A stretch of 13,630 nt of DNA from a virus, in the UHGV virus genome UHGV-0353144, one strand, 5' to 3'. The notes under the pieces were generated by a model. The model ran no database searches. It was given only the letters and a program-made list of their open reading frames with translations, and had not been told where the DNA came from. Below are positions 2,987 to 13,607 of the stretch, piece by piece (position 1 is the first letter of the stretch; each line of letters starts with the position of its first letter). Both the position numbers and the translations under genes were made by a program.

Positions 2987-3454
2987 TTATTTCGGGCATT
3001 GCGTCCTGATGTATTCCTGAAGCGTTCTCAGTGCTGTTTGGTCGCGGATAATTCCGTCCCGGATACCGAGAACGTTTCGTCCAGCAACTGGAGAGAGTTC
3101 GACGGAGGCATCATTGCCCATGCCGGAGGCGCTGGAGGTTTCGGCTGAGGATGGCATAGGGCATTTTCCTTTGACGAGCACCCTACCACCATTATCAAGC
3201 TCGCGCCGAAGAGCATCATTTTCAGCTTTCGCATCAGCTAACTCCTTCGTGTATTTAGCATCGAGTGCATCAGCAGTACGCTGGCGCTGCTGCATGTCAG
3301 TAATGGTGGCAGTCGCCTGCTTCAGCTCACTGCCTTTTTTATCGCGCTGCTCTTTGTAGGCGATGGCGTTATCACGGTAATGATTAACAGCCCATGACAG
3401 GCAGACGATGATGCAGATAACCAGAGCGGAGATAATCGCGGTGACTCTGCTCAT
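2987..3454 (-). CDS. Rz: Rz i-spanin
   Basis: ORF 2987..3454. N-terminal ~85 aa ([31 protein letters not shown]...[19 protein letters not shown]) match lambda Rz as I recall it; the C-terminal part diverges. ATGA overlap with the R stop. Confidence 0.85.
3028..3234 (-). CDS. Rz1: Rz1 o-spanin, embedded in the +1 frame of Rz
   Basis: ORF entirely inside Rz. Strong SD AAGGAG 8 nt upstream of ATG at 3234. Lipobox MVVGC followed by a proline-rich segment ([11 protein letters not shown]), as in lambda Rz1. Confidence 0.75.
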
Positions 3455-3927
3455 ACCTCAATCTCTCTGACCGTTCCGCCAGCCTCTTTGAATTTTGCAA
3501 TCAGGCTGTCAGCCTTATGCTCTAACTGGCCATAACCAGCGCCCGGCAGTGAAGCCCAGATATTGCTGCAACGGTCGATTGCCTGACGAATATCACCGCG
3601 GTCAATCATCGGTAAAGCGCCACGCTCTTTAATCTGTTGCAGAGCTACAGCGTCCTGGCTTTCTGGAGAAAAATCTTTCAGGCCAAGCTGTTTACGGTAA
3701 GCATCCCACCAGCGTGAAAGAAGCTGGTAACGTCCGGCTGCTGTTGATTTGAGTTTTGGGTTTAGCGTGACAAGTTTGCGAGGGTGATCGGAGTAATCAG
3801 TGAATAGCTCTCCGCCAACAATGACGTCATAACCATGATTTCTGGTTTTCTGCCGTCCGTTATCAGTTCCCTCTGACCACGCCAGCATATCGAGGAACGC
3901 CTTACGTTGATTATTGATTTCCACCAT
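3451..3927 (-). CDS. R: endolysin (lambda R-type lytic transglycosylase)
   Basis: 158-aa product [39 protein letters not shown]... is near-identical to lambda R by recall. Overlaps the S gene end. Confidence 0.95.
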
Positions 3928-4234
3928 CTTCTACTCCGGCTTTTTTAGCAGCGAAGCGTTTGATAAGCGAACCTATCGAGTCAGTACCGATGTAGCCGAT
4001 GAACACGCTCGTTATATAAGCGAGATTGCTACTTAGTCCGGCGAAGTCGAGAAGGTCACGAATGAACCAGGCGATAATGGCGCACATCGTTGCGTCGATT
4101 ACTGTTTTTGTAAACGCACCGCCATTATATCTGCCGCGAAGGTACGCCATTGCAAACGCAAGGATTGCCCCGATGCCTTGTTCCTTTGCCGCGAGAATGG
4201 CGGCTAACAGGTCATGTTTTTCTGGCATCTTCAT
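3911..4234 (-). CDS. S: holin / antiholin (lambda S-type, class I)
   Basis: 107-aa product [39 protein letters not shown]... is near-identical to lambda S by recall, including the Met1-Lys2-Met3 dual-start motif. Confidence 0.95.
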
Positions 4235-4353
4235 GTCTTACCCACAATAAGGGGATTTGCTCTATTTAATTAGGAATAATGTCTATTACTGATAGAACAA
4301 ATCCAGGCTACTGTGTTTAGTAATCAGATTTGTTCGTGACCGATATGCACGGG

Positions 4354-4389
4354 CAAAACGGCAGGAGGTTGTTAGCGCGACCTCCTGCC
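4354..4389 (-). other. strong RNA hairpin in the late leader (10-bp perfect stem), possible attenuator/terminator
   Basis: Stem GGCAGGAGGT (4360-4369) / ACCTCCTGCC (4380-4389) with a 10-nt loop; on the minus-strand RNA it is followed by GUUUUG. About 130 nt upstream of S. Confidence 0.4.
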
Positions 4390-4634
4390 ACCCGCTTTCA
4401 CGAAGATCATGTGTAGAAGGCCGCAGCGTAACTATCACTGATGAATTCAGGATAGCCAGTGGCTACGGCTCAGTTTGGGCTGTGCTGTTGCTGGGCGGCG
4501 ATGACGCCTGTACGCATTTGGTGATCCGGTTCTGCTTCCGGTATTCGCTTAATTCAGCACAACGGAAAGAGCACTGGCTAACCAGGCGCGCCGACTCTTC
4601 ACGATTATCGGCTCAATGCTCTTACCTGTTGTGC

Positions 4635-4679
4635 AAACAAAAAAGCCACCGTTGCAACTTAAGAGTCACTAACGGCAGC
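4635..4679 (-). terminator. tR'-like intrinsic terminator of the short late-promoter transcript
   Basis: On the minus-strand RNA: GCUGCCGUU ... AACGGUGGC (9-bp stem with two G-U pairs, 17-nt loop) followed by UUUUUUGUUU. The equivalent plus-strand pairs would be C-A/A-C mismatches, so the structure is strand-specific. Positionally matches lambda tR' (flanking sequence GCACAACAGGTAAGAGC as I recall it). Confidence 0.55.
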
Positions 4680-4689
4680 TTACCCTCTA

Positions 4690-4719
4690 ATTATGGCTAA
4701 ATGGCTAATTGCATGTCAA
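4690..4719 (-). promoter_or_regulatory. late promoter PR' (sigma70) overlapping the 3' end of the Q-like gene; presumed qut region
   Basis: Minus strand: TTGACA (4714-4719), 18-bp spacer, CATAAT (4690-4695). The -35 lies in the last codons of the Q-like ORF and the Q stop TAG sits in the spacer. Predicted start is ~45 nt upstream of the tR'-like T-run. Confidence 0.55.
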
Positions 4720-5215
4720 GGTTTTTAACAGCAACATGCTTAACTTTCTCAACACGTTTACGCATTTTGAAAGCATTTTGCATTGGTTGGTACAAAACAA
4801 ATAATGACGCTTTCAGGATGTCGTCAATTTCATTTCTACAGGTTGCCAGTGAAGGTTTTCTCCATCCCTCGCCACCACGTCCACACATCTTGCGTGGCTT
4901 TGCAGTCGCGTGATAGTAGGATGCAATTGCTCGCTTAGATGAACCATGAGCGTAGTAGCTGAGGAGGATGCCAAAGGCTTTCTTGTCAATGTACATGACG
5001 GAATCGACGACCTGAGAAATCAACATTCCATCATCATCATTGCACATTGGCCTTGTCATAACTCTTCCCGGCTCTACGCTCTCCATGAACTTCGCTATTA
5101 CGCTGCTCATGCGCTTTTCCAGACGACCTGAATAAACCCATGCGCCCCACAGTTCAAGCCAGCCATTCAGCCACTCGTGCTGCTCTTTGGTGAGGTTTAG
5201 TTCTCTTATGCCCAT
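4697..5215 (-). CDS. putative late-gene antiterminator (Q-like, not the lambda Q type)
   Basis: 172-aa ORF occupying the Q position: overlaps the ninI stop at its 5' end and carries the PR' -35 at its 3' end. Sequence is unlike lambda Q as I recall it, so the call is positional only. Confidence 0.5.
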
Positions 5216-5877
5216 GCGCCTTCTCCCTGTACCTGAATCAATGTGAGATTTCCGCAGAACACTGCGCCGGTATCGATATACATCTGGTTGGCAAATTTGA
5301 GTGGTTTCACTGCTGGCGTATGACCAAAGATGAACGTGTCCGCGCCTTTGATTTCTTTCACGATCCCGTCTTGTGAGTTGCTGATTCGTTCGCGGTTCCA
5401 GATTACCTGCTGATGATCAACTGGCTTTCCGAACTCGTATTCATCACAAGGATAATCGGCGTGGCAGATGATATATTTTTTATCTTTGCTCACCAGTTCG
5501 ATGATTAACGGAAGTTCATCTGCTTTATGGGCAAGAGCTTTAGCCAGAATTTCTTTGTCGTAATCGAGATTAAAGAACCAGCCACCGCCATTAAGCAGCC
5601 AGTGATTGACGTTTCCACGCTCTGATAAGCCATCAATCATCATTTGCTCATGGTTTCCACGTACAGCTATGAACCAGGGGAATGTGATTAATTCCAGGCA
5701 TTCAACGTTCTCTGTACCGCGATCGACCAAATCGCCAACCGAGATAAGCAGGTCTTTTTTGGTGTCGAATCCTATCGTCTCCAGTTTTTTCATCAGGTTC
5801 GTGTAGCATCCGTGCAGATCGCCAACTACCCAAATATTTCGGTATTTGCTGCCATCAATTTTTTCGTAATAGCGCAT
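5206..5877 (-). CDS. ninI: Ser/Thr protein phosphatase (lambda NinI / PP-lambda type)
   Basis: ORF 5206..5952; ATG at 5877 with GGAG SD gives [29 protein letters not shown]...GNHE, the calcineurin-like metallophosphatase motifs. Near-identical to lambda NinI by recall. Confidence 0.95.
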
Positions 5878-6061
5878 CTCTTTCACTCCATCCGCGATGA
5901 ACCATGAGAACGTCGTTGACGATGGCGTGCATTTTCCCGTCTTTATCATCAACGTATTTTCTGACCGTACCGCGACTACATTTCAGTCTGCGTGCCACTT
6001 CTGTCTGGTTTCCGTATGCTTCAACGAGCATGTCTGGAATGGTTTTTACTGAGAACGTCAT
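5855..6061 (-). CDS. ninH: NinH
   Basis: ATG at 6061 gives [68 protein letters not shown] (68 aa), matching lambda NinH by recall. ATGA overlap with the rusA stop; 23-nt overlap with ninI as in lambda. Confidence 0.85.
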
Positions 6062-6453
6062 GCGGCCTCCAGTAGCTCTGTAATCATTGGCAAACTCCCG
6101 CATGTTTCAGTCACAACCAACACAAGCATTCCACCTTTAATCGCCTGATAGCGCTTGATGCGCATATCGTCTATCTGACCGTCATCCAGCCAGAAGCCCG
6201 CACTGGTGAGTGCGTCAAAAACGGCTTTGGGCAGATTGTCCAAATCTCGTTTGCGGTTATCGGGAGGTGCTGCGTGGATGGTTATTCTGATGCGAGGTGT
6301 GATTTTGATGTCTAGCTGTTGTTGCTGGATTATTTCGATTACTTCTTTTCGGTATCTCTCCCCCCAGTCGCTGATGTAGTGGATCCCTCTTGAGTGTCGC
6401 CAATATCGGTTGTTTGAAGGAGGCCACGGCAATTTTATTCGGTAGGTTTTCAT
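6058..6453 (-). CDS. rusA: RusA-type Holliday junction resolvase
   Basis: 131-aa product MKTYRIKLPWPPSNNRYWRHSRG...RDLDNLPKAVFDALTSAGFWLDDGQI matches the RusA family signature by recall. Confidence 0.85.
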   Translation of the reverse strand: MKTYRIKLPWPPSNNRYWRHSRGIHYISDWGERYRKEVIEIIQQQQLDIKITPRIRITIHAAPPDNRKRDLDNLPKAVFDALTSAGFWLDDGQIDDMRIKRYQAIKGGMLVLVVTETCGSLPMITELLEAA

Positions 6454-6740: not shown

Positions 6741-7462
6741 TAAGCAGCCTCCCCGGTTACTTTCAGCATTCCGTTATCGAGCAGCTTTCTGGTCAGCCAC
6801 TGTTGACCACGCCCGGTGATTTTTGTGGTGAACGATATCTGTATTCCGTGATTTGTGTTGACCGCTGTTTCTTTCACTGTGAAATAGCCGCGATCCATAT
6901 ATTCCTGCATTGGCACATTGCGCCGGGAACCTGAAGCAATAAGGATTTTGTGATCGCGCATCCACGCAAACAGTTTGTTTGGACCAATTCCAACAACCTT
7001 TGCAAAGTTTCCAATCAAAATTCCGCTGGCCTCGCCAACGCGATCGGCAAACTCAACTTTAGGTGCGGCAATTGCGAACTGGTTTTCCAGTTGCATTTTC
7101 TGCTCAGCAAGATCAGCAGCAAGGCGCAACGCTTCTGGTAGCGTTTTGGGGATATTAACCGCAGCTTCTTCAAGATCTCGCCAGCGGTCAACAAGGCGAG
7201 CGGTGAACTCTGGCGACAACTGGGCAACAACAACAATACTATCTCGCTTACCTTGTTCGCCTTCGAAGACGTAAGCCTCGACACTACGTCGCAGTCCTAA
7301 GTTATTGATTTTTTCGAAAACCTGCAATGCAGGAAGTTGAATAACTCCAGATTTAGCCAGGCGCTCTATTGATATTTTTACGTTATCTGGACGACTTCCC
7401 ACCAAATCAGCGATTTCAATGCTTGTCATTTTGATGGCATTGCCATTTATTAACTCATTCAT
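6740..7462 (-). CDS. phage antirepressor-like regulatory protein (Rha-type N-terminal domain + ANT/KilAC C-terminal domain)
   Basis: 240-aa ORF. N-terminus TSIEIADLVGSRPDNVKISIERL resembles the Rha family; C-terminal half (AIAAPKVEFADRV...FAWMRDHKILI...GRGQQWL) resembles the ANT antirepressor domain. Both by recall. Confidence 0.65.
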   Translation of the reverse strand: MNELINGNAIKMTSIEIADLVGSRPDNVKISIERLAKSGVIQLPALQVFEKINNLGLRRSVEAYVFEGEQGKRDSIVVVAQLSPEFTARLVDRWRDLEEAAVNIPKTLPEALRLAADLAEQKMQLENQFAIAAPKVEFADRVGEASGILIGNFAKVVGIGPNKLFAWMRDHKILIASGSRRNVPMQEYMDRGYFTVKETAVNTNHGIQISFTTKITGRGQQWLTRKLLDNGMLKVTGEAA

Positions 7463-7625
7463 CGTCTTCTTCCTCGTACATTGAGCTATTCGGATCGCTC
7501 ATCAGTTCTGCGCAGCAGTGCTCACACACGTGAACTTCCAGCACATGCAGCTTCTGACCGCAGTTAGCGCACGTTAAAGCTCGCTCGACACTTCCTTGTT
7601 CGTAACTTCGATTTTGGTCAATCAC
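7455..7625 (-). CDS. ninF: NinF
   Basis: 56-codon ORF not in the track (below its size cut-off), read by hand: (GTG)[55 protein letters not shown], matching lambda NinF by recall. GTG start overlaps the ninE stop (GTGA). Confidence 0.7.
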
Positions 7626-7804
7626 CTTGTTTTCCTCGCACGTTCTCTAAGCCACCGGATATCCCACAGGTGAGCCGTGTAGTTGAAGGTTTTTACGTCA
7701 GATTCTTTTGGGATTGGCTTGCGTTTATTTCTGGAGCGCTTCGTTGGAAGGTATTTGCAGTTTTCGCAGATTATGTCGGTGATACTTCGTCGCTGTCGTC
7801 TCAT
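7622..7804 (-). CDS. ninE: NinE
   Basis: ATG at 7804 (ATGA overlap with ninB stop) gives [60 protein letters not shown], matching lambda/DLP12 NinE by recall. The longer ORF-track start at 7864 is probably an upstream extension. Confidence 0.8.
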
Positions 7805-8244
7805 GCCGCCCTGTCTCCCCATCGCGCTTTCCATTCGAGAGCCAGTCTCGCTTCGTCTGACCACTTAACGCCACGCTCTGTACCGAATGCCTGTATAAGC
7901 TCTAATAGCTCCGCAAATTCGCTTACACGCATCCTGCTGGTTGACTGGCCTATTACCACAAAGCCATTCCCGGCAAGGTTAGGAACAACGTCCTGCTGCT
8001 TTAATGCTGCTGTAAAAACGCACTTCCAGCTTTCTGCATCCAGCCAGCGACCATGCCATTCAACCTGACGAGAGACGTCACCAAGGCAAGCCCAAAGCTT
8101 TCGATTCTGGTCTAAGCTGCGGTTGCGTTCCTGAATGGTTACTACGATTGGTTTGGTTGGGTCTGGAAGGATTTGCTGGATAGCTTGAATGGCGTTCTGC
8201 TGATGGATGGTGCTTCTTAGTTCAAACGTTAGTTTCCTCACCAT
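7801..8244 (-). CDS. ninB: NinB (Orf-family recombination mediator)
   Basis: 147-aa product [68 protein letters not shown]... is near-identical to lambda NinB by recall. Confidence 0.9.
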
Positions 8245-12222: not shown

Positions 12223-12501
12223 TTAAGCGTCCAGACTGCTACCAACAGCTGGGCGTTTTTCTTTTGTGAGAATCGATGCCACCTGCTGAGCAAGTCTCGC
12301 CATCTCATCATCAACAACTCCCCATTCAAGAACAGCCAGAAGCATGGCCATCTTTGGGATAAAGCTGTCTTTCCATCGCGAAATTTGCGATTCATTAATC
12401 CCTAACGCGTCGGCAACCTTTCGCTGACCACGTACAGCAATTCGATTCAGGATGTTGCTTGTAATTGCATTCGCTTTCTTGCGAGTACTTGTAAGTTGCA
12501 T
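12223..12501 (-). CDS. cII: CII-like transcriptional activator
   Basis: ATG at 12501 with AAGGAA SD gives MQLTSTRKKANAITSNILNRIAVRGQRKVADALGINESQISRWKDSFIPKMAMLLAVLEWGVVDDEMARLAQQVASILT, homologous to lambda CII (shared ...SQISRWK...PK...MLLAVLEWGVVDD...MARLA.QVA.ILT) by recall. Confidence 0.85.
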   Translation of the reverse strand: MQLTSTRKKANAITSNILNRIAVRGQRKVADALGINESQISRWKDSFIPKMAMLLAVLEWGVVDDEMARLAQQVASILTKEKRPAVGSSLDA

Positions 12502-12580
12502 ATGTAAGTATTTCCTTAGATAACAATTGATTGAATGTATGCAAATAAATGCATACACCATAGGTGTGGTTTAATTTGAT
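12502..12580 (-). terminator. tR1 region (Rho-dependent in lambda) between nutR and cII
   Basis: The minus-strand sequence ...CATCAAATTAAACCACACCTATGGTGTATGCATTTATTTGCATACATTCAATCAATTGTTATCTAAGGAAATACTTACAT-ATG matches the lambda nutR-tR1-cII leader as I recall it. Rho-dependent sites cannot be confirmed from sequence alone. Confidence 0.45.
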
Positions 12581-12612
12581 GCCCTTTTTCAGGGCTGGGA
12601 TGTGTAAGAGCG
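12581..12612 (-). promoter_or_regulatory. nutR (boxA CGCTCTTAC + boxB GCCCTGAAAAAGGGC), lambda-type N utilisation site
   Basis: Minus strand reads CGCTCTTAC (12604-12612) ... GCCCTGAAAAAGGGC (12581-12595), the canonical lambda boxA and boxB hairpin, directly downstream of cro. Confidence 0.8.
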
Positions 12613-12620
12613 GGAATGTC

Positions 12621-12947: not shown

Positions 12948-13607
12948 ATGAAAATGAAATGGTATGAACTGGCTAGATCCAGAATGAAAGAGCTCGGCAT
13001 AACTCAAGAGAAGTTAGCTGAAGAGCTTGGTATGACGCAGGGTGGAATTGGTCACTGGTTGCGCGGATCTCGTCATCCATCTCTTGACGAGATTGGTGTG
13101 GTGTTTAAATACCTTGGTATTGATAACGTCTCATTCAACCACGACGGTACATTTTCACCTGTTGGCGAATACTCATCTGCCCCCGTTAAAAAACAATATG
13201 AGTACCCTGTTTTTTCTCATGTTCAGGCCGGGATGTTCTCGCCTGAGCTTAGAACCTTTACCAAAGGTGATGCGGAGAGATGGGTCAGCACAACCAAAAA
13301 AGCCAGTGATTGTGCGTTCTGGCTTGAAGTTGAAGGTAATTCCATGACCGCGCCAACAGGATCCAAGCCAAGCTTTCCTGACGGGATGTTAATTCTCGTT
13401 GACCCTGAGCAGGCTGTTGAGCCAGGTGATTTCTGCATAGCCAGACTTGGTGGTGACGAGTTTACCTTCAAGAAACTGATCAGGGATAGCGGTCAGGTGT
13501 TCCTACAGCCACTAAACCCGCAATATCCAATGATTCCATGCAATGATAGCTGTTCCGTAGTAGGGAAAGTTATCGCCAGCCAGTGGCCTGAAGAGACATT
13601 TAGTTAA
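12948..13607 (+). CDS. cI: CI repressor (non-lambda N-terminal HTH domain, lambda-type C-terminal S24 autocleavage domain)
   Basis: ORF 12906..13607; ATG at 12948 ([40 protein letters not shown]...). From [31 protein letters not shown] through [24 protein letters not shown] to the C-terminus it matches lambda cI by recall; the N-terminal ~90 aa do not. Confidence 0.9.

Follow-up and report, generated by a model that had tools for sequence, protein, structure and literature searches.

The segment between positions 5215 and 4635 of the 13,630-nt stretch of virus genome UHGV-0353144 analysed here (the window) is very likely the late-gene switch of a lambdoid phage or prophage, built on an antiterminator of the phage 21 family. 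It consists of a Q gene, a late promoter PR' that begins within the last codons of Q, two putative Q-binding repeats, a promoter-proximal pause element and a compact terminator, tR'. On both sides it is embedded in DNA that closely resembles lambda.

The Q gene, the late promoter and the terminator

The Q reading frame comprises 172 codons plus a stop (5215..4697, on the minus strand, from which the genes of the window are read), starting with ATG and ending with TAG at 4699..4697. When its product was compared by phmmer with all PDB chains, the sole matches were to phage 21 Q (6JNX, E = 1.6e-92; 6P18, E = 5.2e-92; residues 1-162), and it is 85% identical to the protein of the solved structure. 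It also scores 90.3 bits for Pfam PF06530, for which the cutoff is 26. Q proteins fall into three unrelated families, of which PF06530 corresponds to Q21 and the others are lambda Q (PF03589) and Q82 (PF06323) (PMC9388147). Neither of these two was recovered: PF03589 had no match in the Pfam search and no lambda Q structure was among the PDB matches, and PF06323 had no match at E <= 0.001. By homology, the 172-aa protein is a Q antiterminator of the Q21 family, of the subtype found in Sf6, L and HK75, and is not lambda Q. The residues with which Q21 touches RNA polymerase or builds the ring in the exit channel are W26, V27, V39, K42 and S46 (PMC6606751), and all five are conserved here, within an N-terminal part that is identical to Q21.

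The surroundings of the gene are those of a Q gene. NinI phosphatase lies upstream (5206..5952, Pfam search) and the lambda-type holin gene S downstream (3911..4234, minus strand; PF05106 and lambda homology), followed by R and the Rz spanin, the latter recognized by Pfam and R, which lies between S and Rz, only through its DNA match to lambda since it has no Pfam match. Q thus stands at the end of the early-right (nin) operon, ahead of the late promoter and the lysis genes, in an order collinear with lambda, and by homology S would be the first late gene under Q control.

PR' has a -35 hexamer, TTGACA, at 4719..4714 (minus strand), inside Q codons 166-168 where it encodes Leu-Asp-Met, and after an 18-nt spacer a -10 hexamer, CATAAT, at 4695..4690 (minus strand), in the position that the phage 21 -10 occupies relative to the downstream repeat. 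The spacer, which is longer than optimal, contains the Q stop codon. At 11 of 12 consensus positions this is the best site of the window, and dinucleotide shuffles of the window would lead one to expect 0.15 sites of at least 11/12 against the one observed, with 13% of shuffles holding at least one. The score by itself is only modestly beyond chance, and the reality of the promoter rests on its position and homology; TTGACA occupies the -35 position in all 164 related loci that are readable there. As a separate matter, CATAAT (5/6) is nearer the consensus than the annotated phage 21 -10, AACACT (3/6; locus L005, 1719..1724), and the spacers are 18 and 17 nt, respectively, so that basal strength may differ between the two promoters.

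Two direct 8-bp repeats, AATTAGCC (4710..4703) and ATTTAGCC (4702..4695), both on the minus strand, form the putative Q-binding element (QBE), where phage 21 has ATTGAGCA and AATGAGCA. The downstream repeat includes the Q stop TAG, and the DNA of the -35 and the QBE encodes the 10-aa C-terminal tail of Q. In phage 21 each of the two QBE subsites has a conserved C:G pair, at -21 and -13 (PMC6606751), a placement that confirms the +1 given in the phage 21 record. If G4683 (minus strand), 7 nt past the -10 and equivalent to the mapped phage 21 start, is taken as +1 of the window, the conserved C of each repeat likewise falls at -21 and -13. Furthermore, the gap from the downstream repeat to the pause element is 12 nt in the window and in phage 21 alike. 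Because this geometry is preserved, I infer a start at 4683 and a terminated RNA of 44-45 nt.

The sigma-dependent pause element (SDPE), TAAGCT, at 4682..4677 (minus strand; +2 to +7), has the same sequence and position as the SDPE annotated in phage 21, and contributes to the 5' arm of the terminator hairpin. That hairpin (4681..4643, followed by U6 at 4644..4639, minus strand) has 17 bp and one bulge and is identical to phage 21 tR'; indeed, the 44 nt from the SDPE through the T-run (4682..4639) are 100% identical to phage 21. Folded as minus-strand RNA it reaches -20.2 kcal/mol (z = -4.1, none of 200 shuffles as stable). A simple terminator scan missed tR' because of the stem bulge, and it was direct folding that detected it. 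The complementary strand folds weakly (-10.6 kcal/mol, z = -1.6) and lacks a following T-run, which makes the hairpin strand-specific. In the lambda sequence the distance from the PR' start to the T-run of tR' is about 193 nt, and the lambda leader RNA is about 194 nt long. The original prediction, made from the letters alone, had proposed a non-lambda Q at the Q position, a near-consensus TTGACA-18-CATAAT promoter with its -35 in the last Q codons, a strand-specific hairpin with a U-run close behind it, and a short RNA far below the size of lambda 6S; all four proposals are borne out, the homology searches supplying the family of Q and the lambda distance of about 193 nt the contrast in RNA length.

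No Rfam family matched anywhere in the window at gathering thresholds, and the hairpin variants among the related loci carry too few changes for covariation to be counted: a few single substitutions, some producing G-U pairs and some breaking pairs. A second hairpin, at 4395..4349 (minus strand; -28.2 kcal/mol, z = -3.0) and followed by GUUUUG, is found about 290 nt past tR' and is shared with lambda; it may correspond to one of the additional late-leader terminators reported for that phage.

How would such a switch work? Q closes the early-right operon, and RNA polymerase would start constitutively at PR', at the predicted G4683. Sigma70 region 2 would then re-bind the -10-like TAAGCT at +2 to +7 and cause a promoter-proximal pause. 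Without Q, polymerase would resume, terminate at the hairpin and U-tract, and free a transcript of about 45 nt. When Q is present, two protomers would sit on the two direct 8-bp repeats between the -35 and the -10 and engage the paused complex, the upstream one placing its ring (the 'nozzle') into the RNA exit channel so that the nascent RNA threads through it. Terminator hairpins such as that at 4681..4643 would be blocked, and polymerase would run past tR' and along the lambda-type leader to reach S, R, Rz and the late operon. Since the pause element lies in the 5' arm of the terminator, with only about 25 nt between pause and release, Q would have to load at the pause, as is known for modules of the 21 type. 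Antitermination by Q21 at the phage 21 PR'-tR' has been shown in vitro and nozzle structures have been solved; a search of the literature found no experiments on the 172-aa subtype.

Three other readings of these elements can be set against a Q21-type late switch. That the promoter and hairpin are chance matches beside an unrelated gene draws on the 13% of shuffled windows with a promoter match as good, but it is effectively refuted by homology to the mapped PR' and tR' of phage 21, by conservation of the elements in more than 160 loci, by the z-score of the hairpin, and by their location, on the correct strand and with Q on one side and the lysis genes on the other. It is very improbable that the segment is an inactive relic of a prophage in decay, its elements recognizable but functionless. 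Although prophage copies are common, with 893 of 5426 complete E. coli genomes holding part of a 201-nt junction query (27 of them hold at least 80% of it), the Q frame is full length and 98-100% identical to the copies in the viable phages Sf6, HK75, HK629 and CUS-3, the -35, repeats, -10, pause element, hairpin and U-tract are all intact, and the flanking ninI, S, R and Rz frames are open.

Hardly more probable is that the short terminated RNA is itself the main product, a constitutive regulatory sRNA of the lysogen comparable to StxS. Lysogens of lambda, 21, 82, phi80 and P22 do make short RNAs terminated at tR', that of Stx phages is an sRNA that binds Hfq (PMC7547250), and the 44-nt block is nearly invariant among loci that differ on both sides of it. 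However, nearly the whole 45-nt RNA is taken up by the 17-bp hairpin, with only two unpaired nucleotides at the 5' end and hence no obvious seed, and it matches no Rfam family. Its pause and terminator roles together with recent recombination explain the invariance equally well, and an sRNA would in any case supplement antitermination, not take its place.

Joints of the cassette and mosaicism

The window matches lambda on both sides of the switch: positions 6069..5213 correspond to lambda 43032..43888 at 97.3% identity, and 4644..3207 to lambda 44776..46213 at 94.7%, whereas the 568 bp between these blocks have no lambda match. The left joint is a 16-nt sequence, AGGGAGAAGGCGCATG (5213..5228, minus strand), that comprises the end of ninI, the ribosome-binding site of Q and its ATG and is common to the window, lambda and phage 21; upstream of it the DNA is lambda-like and downstream it is 21-like. 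In the lambda record, 43884^43885 is annotated as misc_recomb. On the right the joint is formed by the terminator's T-tract (window 4644, lambda 44776), in which lambda homology begins and continues as a lambda-type late leader up to the start of S (4235..4644, minus strand). The original prediction had the leader downstream of the terminator matching lambda, as the 94.7% block confirms, and envisaged a Q/qut/PR'/tR' cassette swapped into lambda-like DNA with its junction inside the terminator. Replacement of Q, PR' and the 6S region relative to lambda stands; the joint needs correcting, for it lies at the T-tract and not within the hairpin, which is wholly of the 21 type. As judged from these alignments, the cassette exchanged relative to lambda extends from the Q ATG to the T-tract.

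The cassette is in turn, by the same kind of comparison, a mosaic of two Q21-family alleles. Identity to phage 21 is 99% from 5228 to about 4950, about 70% from about 4949 to 4683, and 100% from 4682 to 4639. The first change of identity falls sharply inside Q near window 4950, at about codon 88-89 and shortly before helix H5. Q codons 1 to about 88 (4950..5215, minus strand) align to phage 21 at about 99% DNA identity, and codons from about 89 to 172 (4700..4949, minus strand), which encode H5, loop L3, the recognition helix H6 and the tail, at about 70%. In the protein, residues 1-94 are identical to Q21 and residues 1-102 are so apart from H95R, whereas residues 103-162 have diverged and the 10-aa tail has been added. 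On this evidence, the half of Q that binds RNA polymerase and the half that reads DNA differ in their histories.

The diverged part of Q also overlaps what looks, by homology, like an antisense paQ site. A CII-type repeat, TTGC-GTGGCT-TTGC, lies at 4890..4903 on the plus strand, with TAGGAT at 4917..4922 (plus strand), 17 nt past its central hexamer. The phage 21 record places an antisense paQ and CII site there (TTGCGAGGTCTTGC, TAAGAT), and the motif is kept despite the divergence of this region of Q.

To place the joints in a wider sample, Q genes were found by tblastn and 166 related loci were tabulated by Q type, hairpin and downstream leader. The 172-aa Q with the 21-type hairpin is followed by the lambda-type leader in 37 loci and by tRNA-Asn/tRNA-Thr in 28; for the 162-aa Q21 type, with single-base variants of each arrangement counted, the numbers are 17 and 57. 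Because both leaders follow the same hairpin with both Q subtypes, these counts give no direction of exchange. Together with the diverging loci described next, they mark the T-tract and the border between -10 and +1 as joints at which recombination has recurred, which agrees with the mosaicism known for lambdoid phages. The window is a tidy case of that mosaicism at the resolution of single elements, with joints at the Q start codon, at about codon 89 and at the T-tract.

About 21 of the related loci (L011, 1526..2231; L060, L063, L082 and L087, which is HK629) diverge directly past the -10. They have another initial transcribed region, with TATGCT as a possible pause element, and another terminator, AAGCCCACC..GTGGGCTTTTTT; most of them then carry a gene for a 170-aa endonuclease of the HNH/AP2 type, followed by a complete 21-type SDPE and hairpin. 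The annotation of HK629 itself puts pR' elsewhere, at 42745.

When window 4638..4476 was compared with loci L005 (1781..1937) and L001 (1167..1322), one and the same slot contained about 163 nt of lambda-type leader in the window and about 157 nt with tRNA-Asn and tRNA-Thr in phage 21 and Sf6, bounded by the T-tract and by a 61-nt patch (4475..4415) that is 98% identical to phage 21. A tRNA scan of the window found none; it thus lacks the tRNA-Asn/tRNA-Thr pair situated behind tR' in phage 21 and Sf6. The remainder of the window is a lambdoid early-right mosaic, comprising a cI-like segment 93.8% identical to lambda, a cII region at 74%, and ninB and ninE-ninF segments at 92-96% (coordinates cited for the mosaic are 13601..13197, 12614..12248 and 8235..7460). 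The stretches between these lambda-like segments match HK620, HK022, Sf6 and mEp234 rather than lambda.

Specificity of Q for its repeats

Both repeats of the window differ from the phage 21 subsites at the same 2 of 8 positions, G to T and A to C, giving a core of TTAGCC where phage 21 has TGAGCA and leaving A-W-T-x-A-G-C-x unchanged. On the protein side, of the eight DNA-contact residues listed for Q21 (PMC6606751), S93, K94, R113, A124, T125 and R127 are kept in the 172-aa Q, whereas H95 is replaced by R and R128 by N, both being residues described as base-reading. Loop L3, which enters the minor groove, is strongly diverged between the two proteins. The DNA-reading half of Q and its repeats have diverged together from those of phage 21, probably giving a different Q/QBE specificity.

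Among the related loci, the 172-aa Q (R95/N128) is accompanied by TTAGCC-type repeats in 85 of 85, and Q21 (H95/R128) by TGAGCA-type repeats in all 79 that are readable, with no hybrids among the 164. Such an association would suit a matched change in specificity, but it is not independent evidence, because the elements are less than 250 bp apart and each subtype is near-clonal.

I would give roughly even chances to a stronger proposal: that 172-aa Q/TTAGCC and Q21/TGAGCA are a natural orthogonal pair within one family, with H95R, R128N and L3 re-targeting Q. The idea of orthogonality has already been raised for phage L, and no test of orthogonality between the Q subtypes was found in the literature. 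Were it true, prophages of the two subtypes would be unable to switch on each other's late genes when resident in the same cell, and the pair would offer a clean system for the DNA-recognition code of the Q21 helix-turn-loop-helix motif, since polymerase interface, pause element and terminator are identical in both. To judge from the names of the contigs, both subtypes seem to be present, in separate prophages, in one IMG genome (2534681604), at loci L027 (contig _000001) and L091 (contig _000006). If a single genome does hold both, cross-talk or insulation between them would be biologically relevant.

The competing explanation is neutral drift, under which the variant repeats and H95R/R128N are without effect, the 172-aa Q has the specificity of phage 21 Q, and each would activate the other's late promoter. 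It is unlikely, though it deserves more weight than the alternatives considered for the switch as a whole. Six of the eight listed contacts are unchanged, the repeats retain A-W-T-x-A-G-C-x and the exact register to +1, and the pause element and terminator are identical to those of phage 21. However, drift does not readily account for the same two positions being changed in both repeats, nor for the replacement of two base-reading residues along with heavy divergence of the minor-groove loop. Moreover, the authors of the phage L study concluded that specificity likely differs, and there are no hybrids in 164 loci, although tight linkage weakens that last point.

Comparison with known late modules

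The module is already known: it is the common late module of the Sf6/L/HK75 type, annotated in GenBank, and its variant repeats have been discussed for phage L. As a discovery it matters little, being a textbook-type late switch shared by hundreds of phages and by prophages in numerous E. coli genomes. At least 598 confirmed relatives of this Q are present in IMG/VR, the best 80 of which are 98-100% identical in protein. The DNA of Q, promoter and terminator in the window is 97-98% identical to that of Sf6 (gene 59), HK75, CUS-3, HK629, HF4s, Huey and many Salmonella phages, and the subtype shares the same 172-aa Q with R95 and N128 and the repeats AATTA(G/T)CC/ATTTAGCC. PR', a qut site and tR' carry the remark 'similar to phage 21' in the Sf6 record, pR' and Tr' are annotated in that of HK75, and the record of CUS-3 labels the 64 bp past Q 'boundary sequence'. 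For the gp23 module of Salmonella phage L, the genome paper proposed the variant repeats AATTATCC/ATTTAGCC as the QBE, described them as overlapping the 3' end of a Q-like gene whose protein has diverged from residue 94 on, and concluded that a different target specificity is likely.

Differences from these relatives are confined to what follows. HK75 and CUS-3 have the same joint to the lambda-type leader as the window, but inside the leader their segment between window 4610 and 4484 is different. Sf6 and phage L have tRNA genes past the T-tract where the window has the lambda-type leader, and HK629 has the other initial transcribed region and the HNH endonuclease gene. Nothing else of substance distinguishes the Sf6-type modules from that of the window.

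Phage 21 is the reference for the mechanism. Its record (OL657228) marks the -35, QBE, -10, +1, SDPE (TAAGCTG) and terminator, citing Guo et al., 1991, and the structures of its Q are 6P18, 6P19 and 6JNX. Its Q belongs to the same family, the two direct 8-bp repeats that lie between its -35 and -10 have the register to +1 seen in the window, and its TAAGCT, hairpin, T-run and RNA-polymerase-contact residues are identical. It differs in its 17-nt spacer, its -10 (AACACT), the Q stop, which lies 6 nt upstream of the -35 rather than inside the promoter, and the tRNA-Asn and tRNA-Thr genes in place of the lambda-type leader. Lambda, finally, shares with the window the genome position, the near-identical flanks (ninG-ninI on one side and the leader-S-R-Rz region on the other) and the logic, in which a constitutive promoter is followed by a sigma-dependent pause and a terminator, and Q acts as a nozzle. 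Its Q, however, is of the unrelated family PF03589, acting as a monomer on a non-repeat site and requiring NusA (PMC9388147).
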